From Thermoplasmata archaeon (GTDB lineage Archaea > Thermoplasmatota > SW-10-69-26 > JACQPN01 > JAJPHT01), in the NCBI GenBank assembly GCA_034667685.1, contig JAXDQU010000026.1, positions 1 to 10,890 of the forward strand: a stretch of 10,890 nt of DNA. The letters run 5' to 3'. Numbering within the stretch: the first letter of the stretch is position 1; every line of letters begins with the position of its first letter. This document shows positions 1,055-10,890 of the stretch, piece by piece. A program made the position numbers and the translations under genes. The notes below the pieces were generated by a model. The model saw only the letters and a list, made by a program, of their open reading frames with translations, was not told the origin of the DNA and searched no databases.

Positions 1055-1960
1055 ATGAGGAGCACCCACCTGGCGTGGGTCGCGCTCGCCGCGATCCTTG
1101 CCCTCCCAGCCGCCTTCGCCCTGGAGGTCCATGCGACCATCCAGCCGCCCCAGGCGCCGCAGGTCCCGAGCGTGCAGGCCCCGGGCCTCGCGCAACCGCC
1201 CCTCGCCCCCCCGAGCCTCCCGCGGGCTCCCCCCGTCTCCCCGAGCCTGCCCGCGATCCCCCGCGAGCTTCCCGTGCAGGCGCCCGCCGTGCAGGCCCCC
1301 GACCTCACGCGCGCCGACGTGCCCGTCCACGCGGACGTCGCGCTGACGCCCCAGGCGCGCGCCGCCGCGCTGGCCCACGAGGCCGCGCCGATCGCCAAGC
1401 GCGTCGCCCCGCCCGCCGTCGCGGCCGCGGGCCTCCTGGCGCTGCTCCAGGCGCTGGGCGCGTGGCGGCTCCTTGCTACCGGCGGCGTCGCGCTCTACTC
1501 GCGCCTCACGCGCAGCAACCTGCTCGACAACGAGCACCGCGACCAGGTCTACAAGCTCATCCAGGCCGAGCCGGGCCTCAACGTCAGCGAGATCGCCAAG
1601 CGCGCGCAGCTTGGCTGGGGCACCACCGTCTACCACCTCGACCGGCTGGAGCGCGAAGGCTTCGTCGCCGCGGAGCGCGGCGGCCTCTCCAAGTGCTACT
1701 TCGCCGTGGGCCTCCTCGACCGCGAGGCGCGCCGCGCCACCGCCGCCCTGCGCGAGGGCCCGCGCCGCGAGGTGGCCGCGGTCCTGCTCGCGCAGCCGGG
1801 CATCACGCAGGCCGAGCTCGCCCAGCAGCTTGGCATGAGCGCGTCGGCCGCCTCCAAGCAGGTCACGAAGCTCGAGACCGCGGGCCTCGTGCGCCGCGAG
1901 CGCGAATGGAAGACGGTCCGGCTCTTCCCCGGGCCCGGCCTCGCGGCGACCTCCGGATAA
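1055..1960 (+). CDS. Membrane-tethered transcriptional regulator: signal peptide, Pro-rich stalk, TM segment, two winged-HTH domains (COG3398/ArsR-MarR-like)
   Basis: First wHTH: LYSRL...LLDNEHRDQVYKLIQAEPGLNVSEIAKRAQLGWGTTVYHLDRLEREGFV. Second wHTH: QPGITQAELAQQLGMSASAASKQVTKLETAGLV. Hydrophobic N-terminus and a hydrophobic segment just before the first HTH. Confidence 0.85.
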   Translation: MRSTHLAWVALAAILALPAAFALEVHATIQPPQAPQVPSVQAPGLAQPPLAPPSLPRAPPVSPSLPAIPRELPVQAPAVQAPDLTRADVPVHADVALTPQARAAALAHEAAPIAKRVAPPAVAAAGLLALLQALGAWRLLATGGVALYSRLTRSNLLDNEHRDQVYKLIQAEPGLNVSEIAKRAQLGWGTTVYHLDRLEREGFVAAERGGLSKCYFAVGLLDREARRATAALREGPRREVAAVLLAQPGITQAELAQQLGMSASAASKQVTKLETAGLVRREREWKTVRLFPGPGLAATSG

Positions 1961-2574: not shown

Positions 2575-2647
2575 TGGGCCCGCGCGGATTTGAACCGCGG
2601 TCACAAGCTCCCAAAGCTCGCAGGATACCAAACTACCCCACGGGCCC
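2575..2647 (-). tRNA. trnP: tRNA-Pro (anticodon TGG), archaeal type, no intron, CCA not encoded
   Basis: Reverse complement GGGCCCG TG GGGTAGTTTGGTATCCT G CGAGC TTTGGGA GCTTG TGAC CGCGG TTCAAAT CCGCG CGGGCCC A folds into a full cloverleaf with G1-C72 and A73. Confidence 0.97.
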
Positions 2648-2798
2648 CCGTGGTTGCGCCGCGCATGTTGACCATGCGATGATAGTCTTTTCCGCCGGCG
2701 CTTTTCGCGAGGCCGCGAAGCGGCCGAGCGGGATGATGGTCTTCCGCCGGGCTGCCCGGCGCGGGGATCGGCGAGCGCGCCGCACGCGCTTGAAAAAG

Positions 2799-2871
2799 CG
2801 CCCCGGGCGGGATTCGAACCCGCGTCAGAGCCTCGACAGGGCTCTATGATAGGCCGCTACACTACCGGGGC
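2799..2871 (-). tRNA. trnD: tRNA-Asp (anticodon GTC), no intron, CCA not encoded
   Basis: Reverse complement GCCCCGG TA GTGTAGCGGCCTATCAT A GAGCC CTGTCGA GGCTC TGAC GCGGG TTCGAAT CCCGC CCGGGGC G. Followed by a CTTTTT oligo-T tract (archaeal terminator-like). Confidence 0.97.
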
Positions 2872-3127: not shown

Positions 3128-3616
3128 ATGAGAGACTGGATGCACGCCTTCGATGGCGTCGGCAGCACGAAGAAGATGCTCGCGCGAGAGCTCCTGCTCG
3201 CGTTCGGCACGCTAAGGTGCCCGGTCTGCGGCGACGAGAAGCCGGTGGAGAAGCTCACCAAGCACCACATCCACCCGCGCTCGCTGGGCGGCCCGACGGA
3301 CCTGCGCAACCTCGTGCTGATCTGCCGCGCGTGCCACGACGACGTGCACCACTTCCCGAGCGCGTTCTGGGCGCGCGCCGCGCTCGAGGCGTTCCTCAAC
3401 TGCCGCGGCGTGGACCACCCGTTCCCGCCGCCGCCCGAGCCCGAGAGCGCCGAGGACACGCTGCGGATCTTCTTCGTGCGCGCCAGCGCCCGCGTCGAGC
3501 GCGACCAGAAGACGGCCGAGCGCAAGCGCAACCCGCCGTTCAACCCCATGTGGCCCGTGGCGCGCCACTTCGGCACGCTGCGCGAGAAGGCGCTCCACCT
3601 GCCCGCCGAGGCGTGA
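3128..3616 (+). CDS. HNH endonuclease (McrA-like, Zn-binding) with a C-terminal extension
   Basis: CPVC...LTKHHIHPRSLGGPTDLRNLVLICRACHDDVH is the canonical CxxC/HH/GG/NL/CxxCH signature. Start is ATG 3128 or ATG 3140; TATA-like TTCAAGTA at 3106-3113 favours 3140. Confidence 0.9.
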   Translation: MRDWMHAFDGVGSTKKMLARELLLAFGTLRCPVCGDEKPVEKLTKHHIHPRSLGGPTDLRNLVLICRACHDDVHHFPSAFWARAALEAFLNCRGVDHPFPPPPEPESAEDTLRIFFVRASARVERDQKTAERKRNPPFNPMWPVARHFGTLREKALHLPAEA

Positions 3617-4652: not shown

Positions 4653-4732
4653 TCAACACGAAGGCACGAAGGCAAAAAGCCACGAAGAGCCTGGAAGCTT
4701 CGTGCCTTCGTGGCTTCGTGCCTTCGTGTTGA
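4653..4732. repeat. Intergenic hairpin element built from 8-nt CACGAAGG units
   Basis: Perfect 19-bp inverted repeat TCAACACGAAGGCACGAAG (4653-4671) / CTTCGTGCCTTCGTGTTGA (4714-4732), with four 8-nt units per arm. Confidence 0.92.
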
Positions 4733-4750: not shown

Positions 4751-4963
4751 CTAGCCCTGCGGCGCGGTGCGCCCCCACGCGATGCGGTCCCAGAGCTGCT
4801 CGTGCACGACGTAGAGCACCACGCGGATCAGGTTGAACGTCACGGTGATCCCGAGCGTCTCGGTCCACGAGCCGGTGAAGACGTAGGAGAGCGCGCCCAG
4901 GATCACGAAGCCCAGCACGCGCCAGACTAGGCTCTTGATCACGGAGCGGCGCAGCGTCTCCAT
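4751..4963 (-). CDS. DUF2061-family small membrane protein (70 aa)
   Basis: Family pattern METLRRSVIKSLVWR...YVVHEQLWDRIAWG with two TM helices. TATA-like GTTATG (minus strand, 4992-4987) about 25 bp upstream suggests a leaderless transcript. Confidence 0.88.
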   Translation of the reverse strand: METLRRSVIKSLVWRVLGFVILGALSYVFTGSWTETLGITVTFNLIRVVLYVVHEQLWDRIAWGRTAPQG

Positions 4964-5015: not shown

Positions 5016-5103
5016 TCCTCCAGCCACAGAGGACACAGAGGGCACGGAGGACGGAGGACAACAACGGCCTCTGTGTCCCTCTGTGTCCTCCGTGGCTGGA
5101 GGA
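5016..5103. repeat. Intergenic hairpin element built from 9-nt CACAGAGGA-type units, directly after the operon's last stop codon
   Basis: 27-bp arms 5016-5042 / 5077-5103 with one mismatch (a G-U pair on the minus-strand RNA), extendable inward. Lies 7 bp beyond the stop at 5111. Confidence 0.92.
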
Positions 5104-5110
5104 GGCGGCG

Positions 5111-6211
5111 TCAATGACGCGACACGAGGTAGATGAGCACGAGGTCCATGATGAACAGGACCACGACGATGCTCTCCAACGCCATGCCGCGGCGGTGCTC
5201 GACCTCGTGCGAGGCGAGCGTGTACAATTCGTTCAACGTCTGCATCTTCTCGCGCACGATGGACTCCCACTCGCTGAGGTGGAAGCGCTCGGTGAGGCCG
5301 ACGTGGAGCTTGGCGAGGTAGTAGTCGCCGAAGATCTTGCCGATGTTGTTGATGCTGTCCGTGACGCGGACGAAGTCGATGCGCGCCTCGGAGAGCTCTT
5401 CCTGGATGTTGCGCGCGCTGCGGAAGAGGCCGCCGCGGCCGTAGAAGCGCGTGAGGTCGTCGTAGGCGCGCTCCAGGACGAGGTCGAGGTAGCGGTCGTA
5501 GGCGCGCAGCTCCAGCAATTCGAGGTTCGCGCTCTCCATGACGCTGAGCACGTCGTCGTACTTGCCGCTGGGCTCGATGACGAGGGCGCGCTCCCAGTCG
5601 GCGACGACGAGGTCGTCCTGGTAGTAGCTGAACCACGTGCGCAGGTTGTCGGCCACCTCGTCGGCGCTGAGGCGCTCGGGCCTGCGCTCGCCCGCGACGA
5701 GGCCGGCGAGGGCCTGGCGCTCCAGGGTGAACAGCTCGCGCGCGGGGAGGTCGGTCTCCGTGAGGACGATGACCTGGTAGGGCTCGGGCTCGACGGGCGC
5801 GTCGTAGGTCTCAACGAGCGAGGCGCGCATGCGCGGCTCCAGCGTGCCCATGATCTCGCGCGCGATGCCCTCGAAGTTGGCGCCCTCGCGCGGGCGCAGG
5901 TGGCTCGCGTCGTTGACCTCCCGGATCGAGGCGAAGCGGAAGGGGAGGCGCAGCACGACGGCGATGGCGCCGATGGCGTAGACGTGCGCCTCGATCGCGA
6001 CGTCGAACGCGCCGTGCGTCGTCTCCAGCTTGCGCGGCGCGTAACGCAGCGTCAGCGGGCGCACGATCTGCACGTACGAGGGGGCGCTCTTGCCCGGCTC
6101 GATGCGCTCGGCCGTCTCGACGGTGGCGAGCAGGCGCGTGGCGTCGCTCATGCGGATCTCGCCGCCCAGGTCGAAGAGGAAGGTGAAGACGAACTCGCCC
6201 GCGTACGCCAT
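5111..6211 (-). CDS. RMD1/YagE (DUF155)-like protein with a C-terminal TM helix (366 aa)
   Basis: Begins MAYAGEFVFTFLFDLGGEI. Motifs SYYQDDLVVADW, ESANLELLELRAYD, KIFGDYYLAKL...RFHLSEWESIVREK and LESIVVVLFIMD. Strong SD GGAGGTGG at 6225-6218. Confidence 0.75.
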   Translation of the reverse strand: MAYAGEFVFTFLFDLGGEIRMSDATRLLATVETAERIEPGKSAPSYVQIVRPLTLRYAPRKLETTHGAFDVAIEAHVYAIGAIAVVLRLPFRFASIREVNDASHLRPREGANFEGIAREIMGTLEPRMRASLVETYDAPVEPEPYQVIVLTETDLPARELFTLERQALAGLVAGERRPERLSADEVADNLRTWFSYYQDDLVVADWERALVIEPSGKYDDVLSVMESANLELLELRAYDRYLDLVLERAYDDLTRFYGRGGLFRSARNIQEELSEARIDFVRVTDSINNIGKIFGDYYLAKLHVGLTERFHLSEWESIVREKMQTLNELYTLASHEVEHRRGMALESIVVVLFIMDLVLIYLVSRH

Positions 6212-6240: not shown

Positions 6241-7080
6241 TCAGCGCCTGCGCAGCGCGAGCGCCGCGAGGGCGAGGGTCCCCAGCGCGAGCGGGAGCGC
6301 CGGCGCGGGGAGCTTGTGGGTGCCCCCGCCGCTGGCCGTCCCCTGCGTCGGGTCGGTCACGTAGAGGTGGAGGATGGGGATGTCCGCGTAATTGAACCCT
6401 CCCGATTGGCTGGCGAAACGGAGGTGGTACATCCCGGCCGTGGGGAAGGCGTACGAGGCGGTCCAGAGCCCCGTGCCCTGGTGGTCCATCGCCACGACGT
6501 GCGTGTCGTAGAGGATCGTGTGGTCGAGGCTCCAGTGCTCGACGCTCATGTTGAGGTCGTGGAGCTTGTCGACGCGGTGGCTGTCGAGCGGGTCGTCGAC
6601 CTCGATGGCGATCTGCGTCCGCTGGCCGGTCGTCAGGTCCTGGTTGGGGTCGGCCGACGCGATGCGCACGCCCACCTCGGGGTAGACGAGGAACGTCGTG
6701 GACTGCGAGTATTCCGTCCCGTTCTTGGCGCGCAGGGTGAACGTCGCGGAGTAGTTGCCCGCGGGTCCCAGCGCCATGCCCGCGACGAGGTAGCCCGTGG
6801 GGTCGTGGCCGAGGTTCACGCTCTTGTTCCAGCCGCCCGGGCCGACCATCTTCATCGTCCCCGTGAGGTCGGTGACGTAGTTGCCCGTGGCGTTGTCCGT
6901 GATCAGCGCCGAGAACGAGACGCTGTTGTTGCTGTAGAGGTCCTGCGGCTGGAGCTGGATGTAGGCCGCGTAGGGGCCCAGGGGCAGGCTCTGGTTCTGG
7001 CTGAAGGGGCCGATGTGGCCGCTCGCGGGCGGGACGAGGGCGAGGGCGACCAAGAGGGCGAGGGTGGGGACGGCGCGCAT
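6241..7080 (-). CDS. Surface-anchored His/Met-rich protein with two YtkA/FixH-like Ig-fold domains
   Basis: Signal peptide ...PPASG|HIGP. Strand motifs GPAGNYSATFT and FPTAGMYHLRF. His-rich second domain. C-terminal KLPA + hydrophobic helix + RRR. SD GGAGGT at 7091-7086. Confidence 0.75.
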   Translation of the reverse strand: MRAVPTLALLVALALVPPASGHIGPFSQNQSLPLGPYAAYIQLQPQDLYSNNSVSFSALITDNATGNYVTDLTGTMKMVGPGGWNKSVNLGHDPTGYLVAGMALGPAGNYSATFTLRAKNGTEYSQSTTFLVYPEVGVRIASADPNQDLTTGQRTQIAIEVDDPLDSHRVDKLHDLNMSVEHWSLDHTILYDTHVVAMDHQGTGLWTASYAFPTAGMYHLRFASQSGGFNYADIPILHLYVTDPTQGTASGGGTHKLPAPALPLALGTLALAALALRRR

Positions 7081-7083
7081 GCT

Positions 7084-7614
7084 CTACCTCCGGCGGACGA
7101 CGAGGGCGACGGCGACGAGCGCGAGGATGGCGCCCAGCGCGGCCTCGCCGCCGGACTTCTTCGCGGCGCCGCTGGAGGCGACGATCATCTCGCCGTACAT
7201 CTTGTTGTTCGCGTGGCCGGGCTTCGTGCAGAAGTAGTAGAACGTGCCGGCCTTCGACACGCTGGAGATGGTGACGTTCTTCTCGGCGTGGGCGGCGATG
7301 TCGTTGGTGAAGGTCCAGACGTCCTTGCACGTGGGCGAGAGGCTCGTCGTGGGATCGACGCCGTCGCCGCAGAACATCAGGTTGTGCGTGGAGTTGCCCC
7401 TGTTCTCGACGTGGAGCTTGAGCGTCTCGCCCTCCGCGACGTTGATCCGCTCGGGGAGGACGTGATAGCTTCCCGAGGGAAGCTCGTGGATCTGCACGTC
7501 GCACGACTCCACGGTGGCCGACTCCTGGACGCAGGCGCCCGGGTCGGGCGTGGGCTGCGCGAGGGCAAGGGGGGCCAGGAGCGTCGCGGCAAGGAGCAGG
7601 AGGATCGGTCGCAT
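7084..7614 (-). CDS. Surface-anchored cupredoxin (type-1 blue copper protein, 176 aa)
   Basis: Starts MRPILLLLAATLLAPLALA. Ligand set THN...GTFYYFCTKPGHANNKMYGEMIV (H; C-x4-H-x4-M). C-terminal KKSGG + TM + RRR. Confidence 0.92.
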   Translation of the reverse strand: MRPILLLLAATLLAPLALAQPTPDPGACVQESATVESCDVQIHELPSGSYHVLPERINVAEGETLKLHVENRGNSTHNLMFCGDGVDPTTSLSPTCKDVWTFTNDIAAHAEKNVTISSVSKAGTFYYFCTKPGHANNKMYGEMIVASSGAAKKSGGEAALGAILALVAVALVVRRR

Positions 7615-7619
7615 GGGGA

Positions 7620-9239
7620 TCACGAGGGGGCTTTCACGTCGACGTCGAAGGTGAGCTTGGCGAACTCGTCGGGCCTCTGCAGGAGCACCCAGACGCGCCA
7701 CGTGCCCACCGACGAGAAATAGGTATCCTCGCCGCTCCAGGTCTGCTCGTTGACCTTCTGGAGCGTGATTACGTCGCTGGGCTCCTTGGCGCCGGCCTTG
7801 GCGACCTTGATGGCGACGTCCGTGCCGCTGGGGATGTCCGCGGCGCTGAGCGGGTGCAGCGTGACGGCGAGCTTCTGGAGGCCGACCACGGGCGGGTTGG
7901 GGCTGATCTGGAGGACGACGTGCGTCGTCTTGCTCACGTTCGAAAGCTCCAGGTACGGCTGGGGCCCGATGGAGAGGTTCGCGGCGCCCTCCGGGGGCGC
8001 GGTGGAGGCGAGGACGCCCGCGGCGGCCAGCACGCAGACCATGGTGAGCGCCTCGACCTGGACGACGCGGCGGAAGAAGGCGGGCGAGGTCGCGCCGCGC
8101 CTCATGCGCGGGCCGAGGACCTCCTTGTTGTAGGCGCCGATGAGCACGAGCACGCCCAGGAGCAGCACCTTGAGCGAGACGAGCCGGCCGTAGGGATCGT
8201 TCCACAGGTCGCTCCACGCGGGGACGTGGCGCCAGCTCGCCCAGATGCCGGTGGCGAGAAGGACGCCGACGCTCGCGAGCGCCCAGGGCGTGAAGCGGAG
8301 CACGACGGCGGCGACCTGCTGCGCGGTGCGCCCCCAGACGGTGTGGAGGAAGCCGACCAGGCCGCCCACCCACACGGCGCCCATCGCGAGGTGCAGCATG
8401 TCGGCCGCGAGCGAGACGCCGCGAAGCTGCTGGTCCGCCGAGGCGTGGCTTCCCAGCGAGGCCGCGACGAGCGAGCCCGCCGCGAAGAGGATGCCCGCGC
8501 CCCCGAGCACGCGCCGCGCGCCGGGGGCGAGCGCGGCCACGAGCGCGCACAGGGCGCTCGCGCCCAGGAGGATGCCGCGCCAGAGGAACGAGAGCCCCGC
8601 GTCGGTCTGCGAGGCGTCCAGGAAGGAGAGCGCGGTGCGCTGCGCGAGGAAGAGGACGTTGAGCAGCGCGGCCGCGGCGCCCAGGAGGCCGAAGAGCGCG
8701 ACGGTGACGAACGCGCCGCGCGGCATCCCCGCGTCGCGGTCCACCACGAGCAGGAAGAAGGGGATCCCGAGCGCGAAGAACATGCCCGCGTAGTAGACGG
8801 CGCGCGCGAAGCCGTCCTTGACGACGTCGCCCGCCGCGTGGTCGTGCGCGGCGTTCGGGTCGATGGGCACCTGCACGGTCGCGTTGCCCACCGCGAAGAT
8901 GAACGCGCCCTCGGCCGTGTGCGAGTCGACGGAGAGCGACTTCCAGCTCACCGAGTAGAGGCCGTCCCGGAGCGGCGAGACGGGGACGTGGATCTGCGAG
9001 GCCTTCTGCGCGTCGAAGGCCACCGGGCCGGCCTTCACGCTGTTGCCTTGCAGGTCGAAGACGTCCGCGTCGGTGTAGCGGCGCTCGACCTGCTCGCTGA
9101 AGTTGATCGTGACCTCCGTGACGCCATAGCTCGCGTGCCCGTTGGCGGGCGGATCGGACGAGGCGTAGTTGGCATGCGCGGCGGCCAGCGGCGCCGCCAG
9201 GAGCAGCGCCGCCAGCGCGAGCAGGAAGGTCCGTCGCAA
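7620..9239 (-). CDS. copCD: CopC-CopD fusion copper transport protein (YcnJ/CutJ-like) with a C-terminal YtkA-like domain
   Basis: CopC: signal peptide then HANYASSDP, and YSVSWKSLSVDSHTAEGAFIFAV. CopD: TM region with GSHASA, LHLAMGAVWVGGL, LLATG and YGRLVSLK. Soluble C-terminal beta domain. TTG start. Confidence 0.93.
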   Translation of the reverse strand: MRRTFLLALAALLLAAPLAAAHANYASSDPPANGHASYGVTEVTINFSEQVERRYTDADVFDLQGNSVKAGPVAFDAQKASQIHVPVSPLRDGLYSVSWKSLSVDSHTAEGAFIFAVGNATVQVPIDPNAAHDHAAGDVVKDGFARAVYYAGMFFALGIPFFLLVVDRDAGMPRGAFVTVALFGLLGAAAALLNVLFLAQRTALSFLDASQTDAGLSFLWRGILLGASALCALVAALAPGARRVLGGAGILFAAGSLVAASLGSHASADQQLRGVSLAADMLHLAMGAVWVGGLVGFLHTVWGRTAQQVAAVVLRFTPWALASVGVLLATGIWASWRHVPAWSDLWNDPYGRLVSLKVLLLGVLVLIGAYNKEVLGPRMRRGATSPAFFRRVVQVEALTMVCVLAAAGVLASTAPPEGAANLSIGPQPYLELSNVSKTTHVVLQISPNPPVVGLQKLAVTLHPLSAADIPSGTDVAIKVAKAGAKEPSDVITLQKVNEQTWSGEDTYFSSVGTWRVWVLLQRPDEFAKLTFDVDVKAPS

Positions 9240-9268
9240 GGCAATCGCCGCCCACGGACCCTACGCTC

Positions 9269-9895
9269 TTAGCGCTTGCGCGCCAGCGCCACGGCCACCG
9301 CGCCGAGGCCCAGGACCACGAGGCCAAGCTCGACGGCGGGCGCGCCCTTGGTCGCGGAGGCGGGCGTGCTGGAGACGACCGTCGCGGGCGTGCTGCTGGT
9401 GGTCTTGGCCTTGGCCTCCAGCGCGGCGACGCGCGTCTGGAGGTCCTGCACCTGCGTGGCGAGGTCGCCGGAGGACGGGAAGGCGGCGTCGCTGCCGTTC
9501 TCCGCGGGCTCGATGGCGAAGTCCTGGCTGATCGGCGTGCTCGCGTCGAGCTTGCCGCCGACGTGGACCGTGTAGAGGCCCTCCTGCGTGGGCATGAGGG
9601 GCGCGCTGTAGTTGCCCGGGTCCTCGTCGGACTCCGCGAGCGCGAGCGTCTTCGTCTGGCCGCCGTGGGTCACGGTGACGTTGAGCGTGTCCGCGAGGCC
9701 GCTGACGCCCTCGCCCGTGTCGGTCTTCCAGACCTGGACGGTGACGTGGTTGCGCGCGCCGGAAGCCGCGGGCTCGTCGCCCCAGCCGACCTTGACGCTG
9801 TACGCGCCCTGGGTCTGGGTGACGTGCGCCGAGGCGGGCAGGGCGCTGAGCAGAAGGAAGCCGATCGCGATCAGGGGGAGCAGGATCTTGCGCAT
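9269..9895 (-). CDS. Surface-anchored secreted protein with N-terminal His, first gene of the copper operon (208 aa)
   Basis: MRKILLPL...LPASA|HVTQTQGAYSVKVGWGDEP, then a beta-rich domain, a short coiled coil (LATQVQDLQTRVAALEAK), a Ser/Thr linker and KGAPA + TM + RKR. SD GAGGTG at 9906-9901. Confidence 0.85.
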   Translation of the reverse strand: MRKILLPLIAIGFLLLSALPASAHVTQTQGAYSVKVGWGDEPAASGARNHVTVQVWKTDTGEGVSGLADTLNVTVTHGGQTKTLALAESDEDPGNYSAPLMPTQEGLYTVHVGGKLDASTPISQDFAIEPAENGSDAAFPSSGDLATQVQDLQTRVAALEAKAKTTSSTPATVVSSTPASATKGAPAVELGLVVLGLGAVAVALARKR

Positions 9896-9979
9896 GGAGA
9901 CACCTCGGGCCACAAGCCGATTTTTACAGGCCTCGAACGGCACGAGTTGCTTAAGCGTTCCGGATGCGATCGCGTGCCG
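9896..9979. promoter_or_regulatory. Divergent promoter region between the copper operon and the sensor/regulator pair
   Basis: 84-bp gap with two AT patches: TGTAAAAA (minus strand, 9928-9921) and palindromic GCTTAAGC (9949-9956, about 26 bp before ATG 9980). Inverted repeat CGGCACG (9938-9944) / CGTGCCG (9973-9979). Confidence 0.6.
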
Positions 9980-10291
9980 ATGTTCGTCCTGCTCGACGCG
10001 ACCAGCCCGGAGGCGACGCCGTACGCGTCGTTCATCTCCGCCGTCGCGGCCCTGCTCGCCACCGTCTTCGCCGTGGTCGCGTTCCGCGCCCTCGCCCGCA
10101 CCGGCAACCCCGCGCTGCGCTGGGTCGGGATCGCGTTCGTCCTGATGGCGCTCAAGGAGGTCTTCGCCGCCTACAACGTCGTGACCCACTTCGTGCCGCA
10201 CGACGCGATCGAGCTCGTGCTGGCGAGCTGCGACCTCGTCATCATGGGTCTGCTGTTCACGCCGCTCTTCCGCCGGCGCAGCAGGAGCTAG
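9980..10291 (+). CDS. Small three-TM membrane protein (103 aa), putative partner/sensor of the downstream regulator
   Basis: 3' part of track ORF 9563..10291 from MFVLLD. Three hydrophobic helices, AFRALARTGNPALRWVGIAF pattern, a THFVPHD loop and a basic tail. 4 bp before the wHTH gene. Confidence 0.8.
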   Translation: MFVLLDATSPEATPYASFISAVAALLATVFAVVAFRALARTGNPALRWVGIAFVLMALKEVFAAYNVVTHFVPHDAIELVLASCDLVIMGLLFTPLFRRRSRS

Positions 10292-10295
10292 CCGC

Positions 10296-10817
10296 GTGGC
10301 CGAGCCGCTCAAGGCCGGCATCCGCAAGCAGGTCTACGAGGCCGTCCGCCGCTACCCGGGCATCCACCTGCGCGCCCTGGAGCGCAACCTGGGCGTCTCC
10401 GCGCCCCTCGCGCAGTACCACCTGAAGCACCTCGCCAAGGCCGGCTGGGTGGAAGGGCGCGACCAGGGCGGCTACACGCGCTACTGGCCCACCGCGAAGG
10501 AGGCGCGCGTGCGCGACGCCGACCAGGCGATCCTGGGCATGCTCCGCGAGGAGGTGCCGCTCCACGTCGCGCTGCTCCTCCTGGACTTCGGCCCGATGAC
10601 GCACGGCGCGCTCGTGGAGCGCCTCGGCATGGCGAAGAGCAGCGTGAGCTATCACCTCGCCAAGCTCGCGCAGGCCAACATCGTCGAGCGCGAGCCCAAG
10701 ACCGCGCGGATCCGCCTCACCGATCCCGAGCGCATCACCGCGCTGCTGCTCGCGTACAACCCCACGCCCGACATGCTCGACTCGTTCGCCGATCTGTGGG
10801 GCGACCTGTACAAGTGA
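10296..10817 (+). CDS. Soluble double winged-HTH transcriptional regulator (COG3398/ArsR-like)
   Basis: RKQVYEAVRRYPGIHLRALERNLGVSAPLAQYHLKHLAKAGWV and GPMTHGALVERLGMAKSSVSYHLAKLAQANIV, with a C-terminal DSFADLW. GTG start. Confidence 0.9.
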   Translation: MAEPLKAGIRKQVYEAVRRYPGIHLRALERNLGVSAPLAQYHLKHLAKAGWVEGRDQGGYTRYWPTAKEARVRDADQAILGMLREEVPLHVALLLLDFGPMTHGALVERLGMAKSSVSYHLAKLAQANIVEREPKTARIRLTDPERITALLLAYNPTPDMLDSFADLWGDLYK

Positions 10818-10819
10818 TG

Positions 10820-10890
10820 ACGAAGGGAAGCGAGGGAAGACGGGAAGAAGGGAATCGCGGGGGAAGAAGGGGGCCGGTATGGGACCCTTC
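10820..10890. repeat. Purine-rich arm of a hairpin element of the same 17-bp family as 1-83, truncated by the window end
   Basis: GGGAAGCGAGGGAAGACGGGAAG (10825-10847) is the exact reverse complement of 14-36. ACGAAGGGAAG (10820-10830) mirrors 73-83. The final CCCTTC begins the return arm. Confidence 0.85.

Follow-up and report, generated by a model that had tools for sequence, protein, structure and literature searches.

A candidate cell-surface copper-uptake locus around a YcnJ-like CopC-CopD fusion in an uncultured soil Thermoplasmatota archaeon

We examined a window of 10,890 nt (the whole stretch of DNA that was analysed) from a Thermoplasmatota genome with 71% GC. A six-gene locus lies at positions 6241-10817, in the head-to-head layout with four co-directional, closely spaced genes that had been described from the DNA letters alone (the sequence-only reading). 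The genes and features are as follows.

5111-6211, minus strand: gG, 366 aa, protein with a single C-terminal membrane helix, MJ0711_N / DUF155-like
6241-7080, minus strand: gD, 279 aa, anchored two-domain protein
7084-7614, minus strand: gC, 176 aa, predicted anchored type-1 cupredoxin
7620-9239, minus strand: gB, 539 aa, TTG start, CopC-CopD fusion
9269-9895, minus strand: gA, 208 aa, secreted protein
9896-9979: divergent promoter region between gA and gE
9980-10291, plus strand: gE, 103 aa, small membrane protein
10296-10817, plus strand: gF, 173 aa, GTG start, predicted winged-helix regulator

The minus-strand genes gA, gB, gC and gD are spaced by 29, 5 and 3 nt, gE and gF by 4 nt, and 84 nt separate the divergently oriented gA and gE. 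A further gene, gG, follows gD in the same orientation after 29 nt and is possibly co-transcribed with the gD cluster. It had no match in a Pfam profile search, scored 0.98 in the Atlas search against clusters with PF27233 (MJ0711_N), and adjoined gD in 4/4 loci of the genus (L014, L015, L016, L018).

The protein encoded by gB has a signal peptide and eight hydrophobic segments, and both of its named domains scored above their cut-offs: CopC (PF04234) with 55.3 bits against 23.3 (E 1.4e-14) and CopD (PF05425) with 75 bits against 32.1 (E 7e-21). CopC was matched in 20/20 orthologues of gB, and in their alignment H22, E49, D105, H107, H265 and H283 were invariant throughout. These positions include the full CopC Cu(II) ligand set (mature His1, which is H22, Asp105 and His107), aligning with the corresponding residues of solved CopC and of the YcnJ CopC domain, and the two invariant histidines of the CopD part, H265 and H283. 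The family profile of gB matched CopC 6nfq (8e-26) and 9c14, the CopC domain of YcnJ (1.5e-22). No Met-rich Cu(I) motif was visible on inspection of the 20-orthologue alignment, and judged by its residues the gB CopC domain belongs to the Cu(II)-only (C0-1) type. Because there are eight hydrophobic segments, the C-terminal domain of gB is placed outside the membrane; this extracytoplasmic domain is beta-rich, with a position and predicted location as in YcnJ. The sequence-only reading had labelled it YtkA (PF13115), an identity that was not demonstrable: window gB had no match at E<=0.1, a match at E<0.01 was found in 3/20 orthologues (best 0.0011), and an hhalign comparison with a genuine YtkA protein (L028:2769-4148, PF13115 at 9.2e-25) gave a probability of 17.6%. 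For YcnJ of Bacillus subtilis a three-part CopC-CopD-YtkA layout has been described, as well as support of heme-copper oxidases under copper starvation and a requirement for the CopC histidine and a CopD histidine (PMC13344008). By analogy gB is a candidate copper importer of YcnJ-like architecture, in agreement with the earlier proposal of a copper-handling surface system built around such a fusion.

The neighbouring gene gA encodes a secreted protein whose signal peptide is cleaved between ASA and H, leaving His24 as the mature N-terminus. The body is a beta-sandwich of about 115 aa with an invariant Glu41-Pro42, followed by a coiled-coil helix (145-167), a Thr/Pro-rich linker, a hydrophobic anchor and a terminal RKR. 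An alignment of 17 family members showed H1, E18 and P19 (mature numbering) to be invariant in 17/17, and invariance was limited to His1, Glu(-Pro) and Tyr/Gly. A profile search of a library of 1.84 billion proteins retrieved 1918 clusters matching the gA family at E<=1e-3. Among the best 149 of these matches we obtained 141 domain alignments from 138 small proteins, and in 101/101 alignments that started at profile position 1 this position was a His following an AxA motif. The N-terminal half of gD belongs to the same family (hhalign probability 98%, E 2.7e-13 for gA against gD), and together they define an undescribed beta-sandwich family, hereafter the His1 family, whose mature N-terminus is always His.

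According to the predicted structure of gA (pLDDT 79.5; below 50 at residues 41-44, so that the loop with the invariant Glu is modelled poorly) the best structural matches of the His1 family are periplasmic copper-binding beta-sandwiches, and the fold of gA is nearest to CrdA, P19 and DUF4426. The fold search with gA gave Z scores of 10.9 for DUF4426, 10.8 for CrdA, 10.2 for HftA and 9.8 each for P19 and Tp34, and YcnI was absent among the 50 matches listed in each of the searches with gA and gD. In the Atlas search the clusters most similar to gA were mostly from Nitrososphaerota (score 0.91), which we take as a lead only. We also considered gA as a DUF1775 protein (PF07987), an assignment that we rejected with 0/17 family members matching at E<=0.5; the domain was found in 0/21 genomes of the host class, with a positive B. 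subtilis control. YcnI has been described with an N-terminal His, a Glu ligand and a C-terminal helix (PMC8424229), and gA shares with it the signal peptide, the first mature residue His, an invariant Glu, a beta-sandwich, the C-terminal anchor and the CopCD neighbour. This layout strengthens the ycnKJI analogy that had been drawn before, and on its basis gA is a candidate Cu(II) capture protein and YcnI analogue.

In gD the His1 domain starts at the mature N-terminus His22 and is followed by a second, Ig-like domain, for which an alignment showed E181, W183, D186, H187, M217, H219 and H238 to be invariant. The predicted structure of this anchored protein (pLDDT 86.8) placed residues 25-132 closest to CrdA (9ll2; Z 15.0, rmsd 1.7 A, 103 aligned residues; next match Z 11.6). 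The YtkA-like label previously given to gD and a YtkA assignment of gA were dropped, in favour of the His1 family for gA and the N-terminal domain of gD: against a cut-off of 25.9 bits the YtkA profile scored 14.2 bits for gA (E 0.071) and 17.5 bits for gD (E 0.0064). Matches were found in 5/17 members of the gA family (best E 0.0076) and, at E<=0.5, in 8/12 gD orthologues (best 1.6e-4, sub-threshold), and hhalign of gD with a genuine YtkA protein gave a probability of 1.3%. A distant relationship to YtkA may exist for gA and likewise for gD.

The proposed type-1 cupredoxin was recovered in gC. As a single sequence gC scored 23.7 bits for Cupredoxin_1, under the Pfam cut-off of 27, and a profile built from seven orthologues reached 8.8e-18 with nitrite reductase 2dv6 (its cupredoxin domain) and about 1e-8 with plastocyanins. 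The type-1 ligands read His77, Cys129, His134 and Met139 (His...Cys-x4-His-x4-Met); H43, H51, H77 and M139 were invariant in 7/7 orthologues, and the Cys and His ligands were kept in 6/7. An NCBIfam search further gave a weak match to the CopI cuproprotein (E 0.0028). To judge from these ligands and profile matches, gC encodes a small C-terminally anchored type-1 cupredoxin.

The C-terminal anchoring of the accessory proteins, part of the sequence-only reading, was retained with an amendment: in relatives these anchors appear to resemble PGF-CTERM/archaeosortase signals, beyond plain transmembrane tails. TIGR04126 (PGF-CTERM) matched 4/17 members of the gA family (best 2.8e-5) and PF18204 matched 2/17. 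In the window itself gA, gC and gD carry a hydrophobic helix, a basic tail and a degenerate PGF motif, with no match to TIGR04126 or PF18204. A gA paralogue in the same genome carries VPGFE, three genes of the exosortase/archaeosortase family are encoded in the genome, and the tail of the gA profile matched the C-terminus of the Haloferax volcanii S-layer glycoprotein (E 0.006).

On the plus strand, gE encodes a three-helix membrane protein with a marginal match to DUF7521 (PF24365; 27.1 bits against a cut-off of 27), and this domain was matched at E<0.01 in 7/12 orthologues. K59, H74 and D85 were invariant in the alignment, N43 and E78 nearly so, and in a topology deduced from charge distribution the motif (H)xxxPH[DE]xxE falls at that end of helix 3 which is predicted to face outward. 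The protein encoded by gF begins with HTH_HVO_0163_N (PF24266; 60.4 bits against a cut-off of 31, E 1.8e-16), continues with a second winged helix of ArsR/MarR type (MarR_2, HTH_5 and others match residues 92-136; NF033788 at 56.2 bits against 55) and ends in a conserved acidic tail (PTPDxLDxFxxLWxDLY). From its domains gF is classed as a cytoplasmic HVO_0163-type regulator with two winged-helix domains. In an 11-sequence alignment of gF we found conserved His (H24, H42, H120), no conserved Cys and no recognisable metal site. In the relatives examined gE always immediately preceded gF in the same orientation, and gE is a candidate signal-sensing partner of gF. Each genome carries 8-20 members of the expanded gF family, with the top-scoring orthologue adjoining gE/CopCD. 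Two further gE-gF pairs are found in the same genome beside genes unrelated to metals, and two genomes of the class (G011, G015) encode gE-gF without CopCD. That gF is without a recognisable metal site and comes from a family of many copies, and that gE-gF pairs stand near non-metal genes or in genomes without CopCD, count against the best explanation of the locus, as do the missing DUF1775 match of gA, the undemonstrated YtkA identity of the gB C-terminal domain and the poorly modelled Glu loop of gA. A related membrane-protein/regulator pair linked to DUF7521 has been mentioned, uncharacterised, in Haloferax.

The divergent promoter region contains two AT-rich boxes, ATTTTTAC (9920-9927) and CTTAAG (9951-9956), each some 25 nt ahead of a start codon, that of gA and that of gE, respectively. 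Alignment of four orthologous intergenic regions and a palindrome scan revealed a conserved element, TCGAAC-N11-CTTAAG-N2-TTCCGG, at 9933-9963, which occurs once in the 3.48-Mb genome at <=1 mismatch (0 control hits) and which is a candidate operator. The previous suggestion of a divergent regulator unlike CsoR, CueR or CopY holds for this conserved, dedicated pair of a DUF7521 and an HVO_0163-type protein.

The neighbourhood comparison that the sequence-only reading had called for showed an arrangement far beyond chance, conserved class-wide and in other classes of the phylum. A gene of the gA family lay <=500 bp from CopCD in 14/18 loci of the host class; the four loci without this neighbour had <450 nt of contig left on that side. 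The best gE was found <=5 kb from CopCD on the same contig in 14/19 CopCD-bearing genomes (a hand count). Outside the host class, CopCD was <=5 kb from gA in 8/12 gA loci (8/10 genomes), and the pairing recurs in other Thermoplasmatota classes. The conserved core consists of gA, CopCD and gE/gF. Both gC and gD are confined to one family of the class, so the three anchored copper-binding proteins proposed earlier do not form a conserved unit. Multicopper oxidases (L020, L022, L024), plastocyanin-like proteins (L019, L022) and ZnuA/ABC-3/NikR genes (L017, L020) were encoded near CopCD in some relatives, and a permease of the Ftr1/FetM type was found neither in the window nor in the related loci examined.

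We also took stock of copper genes in the remaining genome. P1B-ATPase and multicopper oxidase genes are absent from the window, as had been noted before, and both are encoded elsewhere: a copper P1B-ATPase with HMA domain and its own AsnC-type regulator on another contig, and multicopper oxidases. A COX3-COX2-COX1 operon for an aa3-type oxidase is present and unlinked to the cluster, and Sco and PCuAC were not found in this 99%-complete genome.

From the domain identities, ligand conservation, fold similarity, synteny and copper-gene inventory we infer, with moderate confidence, that the locus would serve cell-surface capture of Cu(II), its import and its delivery to cuproenzymes, with gA, gB and gE/gF as core. 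The protein gA would be held off the membrane by its coiled coil and Thr/Pro-rich stalk on the PGF-CTERM-like anchor, and would bind Cu(II) through its first-residue His (free amino terminus and imidazole) and the invariant Glu, in a site mirroring the mono-histidine brace of YcnI. Cu(II) might then be handed to the His1/Asp/His site of the gB CopC domain and carried across the membrane by the eight-helix CopD domain with its two invariant His, while the outside C-terminal domain of gB would relay copper to extracytoplasmic cuproenzymes, possibly the aa3-type oxidase and the multicopper oxidases. In the family that encodes them, gC and gD could join this relay, and gC might interconvert Cu(II) and Cu(I) in a redox step. 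Co-transcribed with gE, gF would control the divergent promoters via the locus-specific operator, and gE may report copper status through His/Asp/Glu at the outer face.

Analogy and genome context make uptake the most likely function, rather than resistance. A role in surface copper resistance or homeostasis, which we consider unlikely, would mean that the anchored proteins bind up or oxidise surplus copper outside the membrane like CopC/PcoC, CopI and CrdA, with CopCD feeding copper to a cytoplasmic sensor and efflux and the cluster being induced by high copper. It would fit with the His1 domain being structurally closest to CrdA, named as a copper resistance determinant, with the weak CopI match of gC (E 0.0028), and with the multicopper oxidases and blue-copper proteins beside CopCD in relatives, as in copABCD; CopC and CopD are moreover classically named resistance proteins (PMC7785015). 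However, the CopC domain of gB appears to be Cu(II)-only and without the Met-rich site of resistance-type CopC/PcoC, as these types are described in PMC7785015 and PMC8424229, and CopC-CopD fusions have been tied to import in Bacillus (PMC13344008) and are induced by limitation in Nitrososphaera (PMC7785015). The efflux ATPase with its regulator is encoded elsewhere in the genome, and the window is without a multicopper oxidase.

Copper could also be passed on without net import: the outside domains of gB, together with gA, gC and gD, would then directly supply the aa3 oxidase (at its CuA/CuB sites) and the multicopper oxidases in place of Sco and PCuAC, and CopD would either serve as a scaffold or export copper from the cytoplasm to them. 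The failure to find Sco or PCuAC in a genome that is 99% complete and encodes COX1-3, the His/Met cluster of gD that is typical of Cu(I) chaperones, and the help of the YcnJ YtkA domain and CtaK in CuA assembly in Bacillus (PMC13344008) are consistent with such a relay. We nevertheless regard it as quite unlikely, as the cluster is unlinked to the oxidase operon, gC and gD are missing from the conserved core in most lineages, and the copper sites of both CopC and CopD are needed in Bacillus (PMC13344008), consistent with import. Highly improbable is a service of the His1 proteins to another metal such as iron, with copper linked only through CopCD. The top structural matches of both gA and gD include P19, FtrA, HftA and Tp34, copper-dependent proteins of the P19/FetP/FtrA/Tp34 kind serve iron, and ZnuA/ABC-3/NikR genes occur near CopCD in L017 and L020. 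Against this, CopCD is the strictly conserved partner, the P19-type ligands (several His and Met) are not conserved in gA, and neither the window nor those related loci that were examined encode an Ftr1/FetM-type permease.

While the export of copper is well understood, its import and its delivery to extracytoplasmic enzymes are not, and least so in archaea. The locus brings in a new candidate copper-binding family, defined by sequence, with more than 1000 clusters, an invariant N-terminal His and strict linkage to CopCD. An aerobic archaeon without detectable Sco, PCuAC and DUF1775 raises the question of how its oxidase gets copper, and for the DUF7521-linked pair of small membrane protein and regulator the locus offers the first obvious candidate signal. 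As the organisms are uncultured soil Thermoplasmatota, the cluster informs on metal economy in soils. A bolder proposal, possible yet doubtful in our view, is that the His1 family might constitute a new histidine-brace-type Cu(II) class that replaces YcnI/DUF1775 as obligatory CopCD partner in archaea and probably some bacteria, and that DUF7521 might be a membrane sensor of extracellular copper gating a double winged-helix repressor. If true, sensing by DUF7521 would follow a mechanism unlike that of known cytoplasmic copper sensors.

Several known systems resemble parts of the locus. CrdA of Helicobacter pylori and P19/FetP/FtrA/Tp34 are small secreted copper-binding beta-sandwiches and the best fold matches of the His1 domain, with no sequence similarity detectable between them and this domain; their copper sites consist of internal His/Met, whereas the invariant feature of the His1 family is the N-terminal His. 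In Pseudomonas copABCD, Escherichia coli pcoABCDE and yobA-yebZ-yebY homologues of CopC and CopD act together as well, but as separate proteins instead of a fusion. Multicopper oxidases stand beside CopCD in some relatives of the window locus as in copABCD/pco, whose resistance-type CopC has a Met-rich Cu(I) site that is absent from gB; the window locus is also without an outer-membrane component and a multicopper oxidase. The sequence-only reading knew of no characterised archaeal system of this composition, and here the published CopC/D cluster of Nitrososphaera viennensis has to be added: its CopC/D fusions are described as among the most up-regulated genes under copper limitation and adjoin an ArsR-type regulator and exported unknown proteins (PMC7785015). 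This cluster (NVIE_014300/014310 and neighbours) comes from another phylum, and its fusions are likewise of the Cu(II)-only type (PMC7785015). With ycnKJI the locus shares a Cu(II)-only CopC-CopD fusion with an extra outside C-terminal domain, a secreted neighbour with mature His start, conserved Glu and C-terminal helix, a local dedicated regulator, and an organism dependent on heme-copper oxidases. It differs in that gA is not DUF1775 and has its nearest fold in CrdA/P19/DUF4426, in that the gB C-terminal domain is not demonstrably YtkA, in the DUF7521 membrane protein and double winged-helix protein in place of YcnK, in the putative PGF-CTERM-like anchors, and, in the family with gC and gD, in these two additional proteins, a cupredoxin and a His1 protein of two domains. 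By this comparison the Bacillus operon for copper uptake most likely has an archaeal counterpart in this locus, some of whose protein families are undescribed.

We found all six genes of the copper cluster proposed in the sequence-only reading in the places that it had assigned to them. The host genome (G000) has a size of 3.48 Mb, a GC content of 71% and a completeness of 99%, and the window is one entire contig of it (C26, 10,890 bp); soil metagenome runs also contain the stretch. Four minus-strand genes, separated by 29, 5 and 3 nt, are oriented away from a plus-strand pair with 4 nt between its members, and the divergent intergenic region measures 84 nt. The features were as follows:

2575-2647, minus strand: tRNA-Pro(TGG)
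2798-2871, minus strand: tRNA-Asp(GTC)
5111-6211, minus strand: gG, 366 aa, MJ0711_N/DUF155-like, single C-terminal membrane helix
6241-7080, minus strand: gD, two-domain His1 protein (His as first residue of the mature protein)
7084-7614, minus strand: gC, cupredoxin
7620-9239, minus strand: gB, CopC-CopD fusion (CopCD)
9269-9895, minus strand: gA, His1 protein
9980-10291, plus strand: gE, DUF7521 membrane protein
10296-10817, plus strand: gF, double winged-helix regulator

The gene gG starts 29 nt past gD, adjoins it in 4/4 loci of the genus and may be a member of the same transcription unit. A 17-bp tandem repeat (unit CCGTCTTCCCTCGCTTC) is found at both ends of the contig, at 1-88, with 5.1 copies on the left, and again at 10819-10871; the two arrays are inverted relative to each other, with arms 93% complementary, and are probably the reason for the assembly break. 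Related GA/CT-rich short repeats are also present within the contig. Two long near-perfect hairpins composed of 8-10-bp tandem units, at 4653-4732 and 5016-5103 (35-nt arms, 89%, and 27-nt arms, 96%), bracket a small DUF2061 membrane-protein gene (4751-4963, minus strand) and may act as terminators or represent a family of repeat elements. The plus strand encodes, at 3128-3616, a small HNH endonuclease that stands alone (PF01844, 1.2e-13; weak match to the IscB HNH region, 2e-10), and a relative carries an HNH gene at a similar distance from the cluster (L016:1366-2235).

The gB product scored over the Pfam cut-offs for both CopC (55.3 bits) and CopD (75 bits). Of the CopC-CopD-YtkA fusion described previously these two parts stood, while for YtkA there was no match in the window protein; 3 of 20 orthologues matched at E<0.01, and comparison of the gB profile with a genuine YtkA protein of a related locus was non-significant (hhalign, 17.6% probability). 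Among solved structures, the profile matched CopC (6nfq) at 8e-26 and, at 1.5e-22, the CopC-like part of YcnJ from B. subtilis (9c14). The CopC Cu(II)-site residues His22, Asp105 and His107 were invariant among the 20 orthologues and aligned with the corresponding residues of both structures, His22 being the first residue past the predicted signal-peptide cut. Glu49 and the membrane-domain residues His265 and His283 were invariant as well, and inspection of gB revealed no Met-rich Cu(I) motif. By hydropathy, gB has a signal peptide followed by eight membrane-spanning stretches, which would place a C-terminal domain of ~110 residues outside, together with CopC; this domain occupies the place of the YtkA domain in YcnJ. 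A search for related loci with an alignment of 8 closer sequences yielded only 10, and the same Thermoplasmatota contigs account for 5 of these.

As a single sequence gC remained under the Pfam cut-off. In a profile search with seven orthologues, 2dv6, a nitrite reductase with an additional cupredoxin domain, matched through that domain at 8.8e-18, and plastocyanins matched at ~1e-8. The type-1 ligands His77, Cys129, His134 and Met139 were all present in gC, confirming its assignment as a type-1 cupredoxin. His43 and His51 were also invariant.

The gA product consists of a signal peptide ending in ASA, His as first mature residue, a beta-sandwich of ~115 residues, a long helix (145-167), a Thr/Pro-rich stretch, a C-terminal hydrophobic helix and a basic tail. 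Invariant in the domain (mature numbering, 17 sequences of the archaeal class containing G000) were His1, Gly14, Glu18-Pro19, Gly83, Tyr85, Gly91 and Pro117. The gD N-terminus is similar, with ASG followed by His22 as first mature residue, and the two proteins are homologous by profile-profile comparison (probability 98%, E 2.7e-13), a score to which signal peptides and anchors contribute part. Two Ig-like domains make up the predicted structure of gD (pLDDT 86.8). The second contains invariant Glu181, Trp183, Asp186, His187, Met217, His219 and His238, a residue set of the kind met in Cu(I) chaperones.

We searched ~48,000 representative chains for related folds with VIA-align, which is independent of Foldseek. 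Residues 25-132 of gD matched H. pylori CrdA with Z 15.0 (rmsd 1.7 Å, 103 residues), well ahead of HftA (11.6), FtrA-P19 (11.4), Tp34 (11.4) and DUF4426 (11.3); for the gA model (pLDDT 79.5), Z values were 10.9 to 9.8 with this fold group and ~7.5 with CopC. The top matches of gA and gD are periplasmic copper-binding beta-sandwiches, a shared fold alone being no proof of function. Foldseek with gD returned generic tandem Ig/FnIII matches only, and the gA and gD profiles found only filamin repeats and coiled coils among PDB sequences. By hhalign, neither gD nor gA was significantly related to CopCD (32% and 24% probability), nor gD to a genuine YtkA protein (1.3%); the YtkA score of the second gD domain was under threshold, with 8/12 orthologues at E<=0.5 and a best value of 1.6e-4. 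Assignment of gA to DUF1775 was rejected, as 0/17 members and 0/21 class genomes matched and the B. subtilis control was positive. Structures of YcnI, a DUF1775 protein, were absent among the 50 matches listed in either gA fold search, an outcome still compatible with that fold.

Among the 21 species genomes of the class, 19 encode a full-length CopCD fusion. We scanned 18 CopCD loci with profiles, many of whose sequences had also served to build these profiles; L021, L025, L026 and L028 were newly detected. In 14/18 loci a gA-family gene was located <500 bp from CopCD, and the loci lacking one (L015, L023, L024, L031) have <450 nt of contig upstream of CopCD. The gE gene was found in 12/18 loci, mostly accompanied by gF. 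By hand count, the best-scoring gE lay <=5 kb from CopCD on the same contig in 14/19 genomes, the exceptions (G005, G006, G008, G014, G019) all being fragmented assemblies. In one genome (G012) CopCD is present twice, and both copies are accompanied by a separate gE/gF pair; two genomes (G011, G015) have gE/gF and no CopCD. The genes gC and gD were confined to family f1 (L014, L015, L016, L018, L029), with gC alone also in L019. This distribution indicates gA, CopCD and gE/gF as the conserved unit, and not the six-gene system as a whole. Across the phylum, gA-family genes occurred in 27/251 genomes sampled, 10 of them outside the class, where CopCD lay <=5 kb from the gA gene in 8/12 loci and 8/10 genomes. 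Further CopCD neighbours in relatives were multicopper oxidases (L020, L022, L024), ZnuA/ABC-3/NikR (L017, L020) and plastocyanin-like proteins (L019, L022); L028 in addition has a genuine double-YtkA protein.

At one locus (L068, G070:C14, 7606-9453) CopCD matched in two same-strand pieces, profile positions 5-168 and 176-541, owing to a frameshift or to a gene that is split in two. Outside the class, at L062 (G201:C6, 7001-8771), a gA paralogue adjoins gE-gF and CopCD is absent within 7 kb, which hints that the regulator pair may be linked to the His1 protein no less than to CopCD. A same-genus record (L032/L014, G003:C42), whose cluster is 72% identical to that of the window, is titled 'Proteobacteria bacterium'; this is probably a taxonomic mislabel, other relatives being titled Thermoplasmatota.

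No Pfam family covers the gA domain. A profile of this domain alone, run against a 1.84-billion-protein library, retrieved 1918 cluster representatives with E<=1e-3, of which 1045 reached E<=1e-10. Of the best 149 matches, 138 were proteins of at most 300 residues. These gave 141 domain alignments, of which 101 start at profile position 1, and in 101/101 this position is His preceded by an AxA-type cleavage motif; a hydrophobic stretch with basic residues closes the C-terminal end in 92/138. None of ten clusters looked up had an informative name. Atlas look-alikes belonged for the most part to Nitrososphaerota clusters (score 0.91, no more than a lead), and scanning metagenomes with an alignment of one gA sub-family gave only 5 loci, one a 1.1-kb contig with the gE/gA/CopCD arrangement. 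PGF-CTERM models matched some family tails (TIGR04126 4/17, PF18204 2/17), and the gA profile tail matched the C-terminal end of the S-layer glycoprotein from Haloferax at E 0.006. The window proteins' own tails gave no match to these models, the motif being degenerate. Three exosortase/archaeosortase-family genes are present in G000, and sorting of the window anchors by an archaeosortase is plausible. A gA paralogue of the same genome (L056, C25, 10931-11566, minus strand) has a clear PGF-CTERM tail (VPGFE, helix, RRRG). It adjoins three paralogous secreted Cys/Gly/Asp-rich proteins, and at a distance of 4 kb there is a 278-aa gene (6368-7204, minus strand) with multicopper-oxidase (Cu-oxidase_3) matches.

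The gE product passed DUF7521 marginally (27.1 vs 27 bits), with 7/12 orthologues at E<0.01. It has three hydrophobic helices, invariant Lys59, His74 and Asp85 and nearly invariant Asn43 and Glu78; by the positive-inside rule its (H)xxxPH[DE]xxE motif would sit where helix 3 reaches the outer face. In gF, the N-terminal winged helix is of HVO_0163 type (60.4 bits) and is followed by a second winged helix of ArsR/MarR type and a conserved acidic C-terminal tail, with no conserved Cys in the alignment. In the open-access literature searched, HVO_0163 turned up in a single, unrelated proteomics study; a preprint mentions an uncharacterised transmembrane protein beside a DUF7521-annotated regulator in Haloferax (HVO_B0192/B0193; bioRxiv 10.1101/2025.11.10.687552). 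The gene immediately preceding gF, in the same orientation, is invariably gE, and class genomes carry 8-20 gF-family (E<=1e-15) and 1-4 gE-family copies. Two further gE-gF pairs in G000 (C89, C8) have neighbours unrelated to metals, which rules out the family as copper-specific. Within the window, a gF paralogue at 1055-1960 (plus strand, profile E 6.4e-17) begins with a signal/membrane segment, contains a region of ~100 residues rich in Pro, and would be a membrane-tethered form of the regulator.

The gA-gE intergenic region contains two AT-rich boxes, each ~25 nt before a start codon, suggesting leaderless transcripts. An operator-like element, TCGAAC-N11-CTTAAG-N2-TTCCGG, is conserved in four orthologous regions of the genus and occurs once in the whole G000 genome (up to one mismatch). 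A regulon search with it in the rest of the genome returned only the gA-gE site itself, which fits a dedicated local regulator. Compared by eye, the N. viennensis promoter motif TTCSGSMTTTGWACYANT had no convincing counterpart.

Elsewhere, G000 encodes one Cu-type P1B-ATPase with HMA domain beside an AsnC-type regulator (C56), a COX3-COX2-COX1 operon (C85), multicopper oxidases (C44, C25) and the gA paralogue described above (C25); Sco and PCuAC were not found in this 99% complete genome. This inventory indicates that copper is needed outside the membrane, that efflux is encoded and regulated elsewhere and that the usual CuA chaperones are absent. That the locus handles copper at all is highly probable, and service to another metal is very improbable. 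By analogy we cautiously favour, at slightly better than even chance, that it would capture Cu(II) at the cell surface, import it and deliver it to cuproenzymes, as an archaeal functional counterpart of ycnKJI. Copper resistance is an unlikely reading, to which CrdA, the fold match of the His1 domain, lends some support as a resistance protein, as do the multicopper oxidases adjoining CopCD in relatives. A relay that would purely metallate proteins outside the membrane is a little less likely still.

The CopC-CopD importer type and its presence in archaea are already known. New are the His1 family, which is strictly linked to CopCD, a cupredoxin and a two-domain His1 protein that are both specific to the lineage, and the pairing of CopCD with a DUF7521/double winged-helix module; in the open-access literature searched we found no published account of the His1 family, gC/gD or the DUF7521 pairing. 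YcnJ has been described to support Bacillus oxidases in copper starvation and to require the CopC His and a CopD His, its YtkA domain overlapping functionally with CtaK (PMC13344008). Copper transfer between YcnI and YcnJ has reportedly been assayed (PMC12362106). In N. viennensis, CopC/D fusions, a nearby ArsR-family gene and exported unknown proteins were reported as up-regulated in copper limitation (PMC7785015). With copABCD, some relatives' loci have in common the multicopper oxidases beside CopCD. YcnI, often encoded beside CopCD, is reported to have a signal peptide and a C-terminal helix, its ligands being a Glu and the N-terminal His, which provides two nitrogens (PMC8424229); gA shares this published layout, though it lies outside DUF1775 by sequence.
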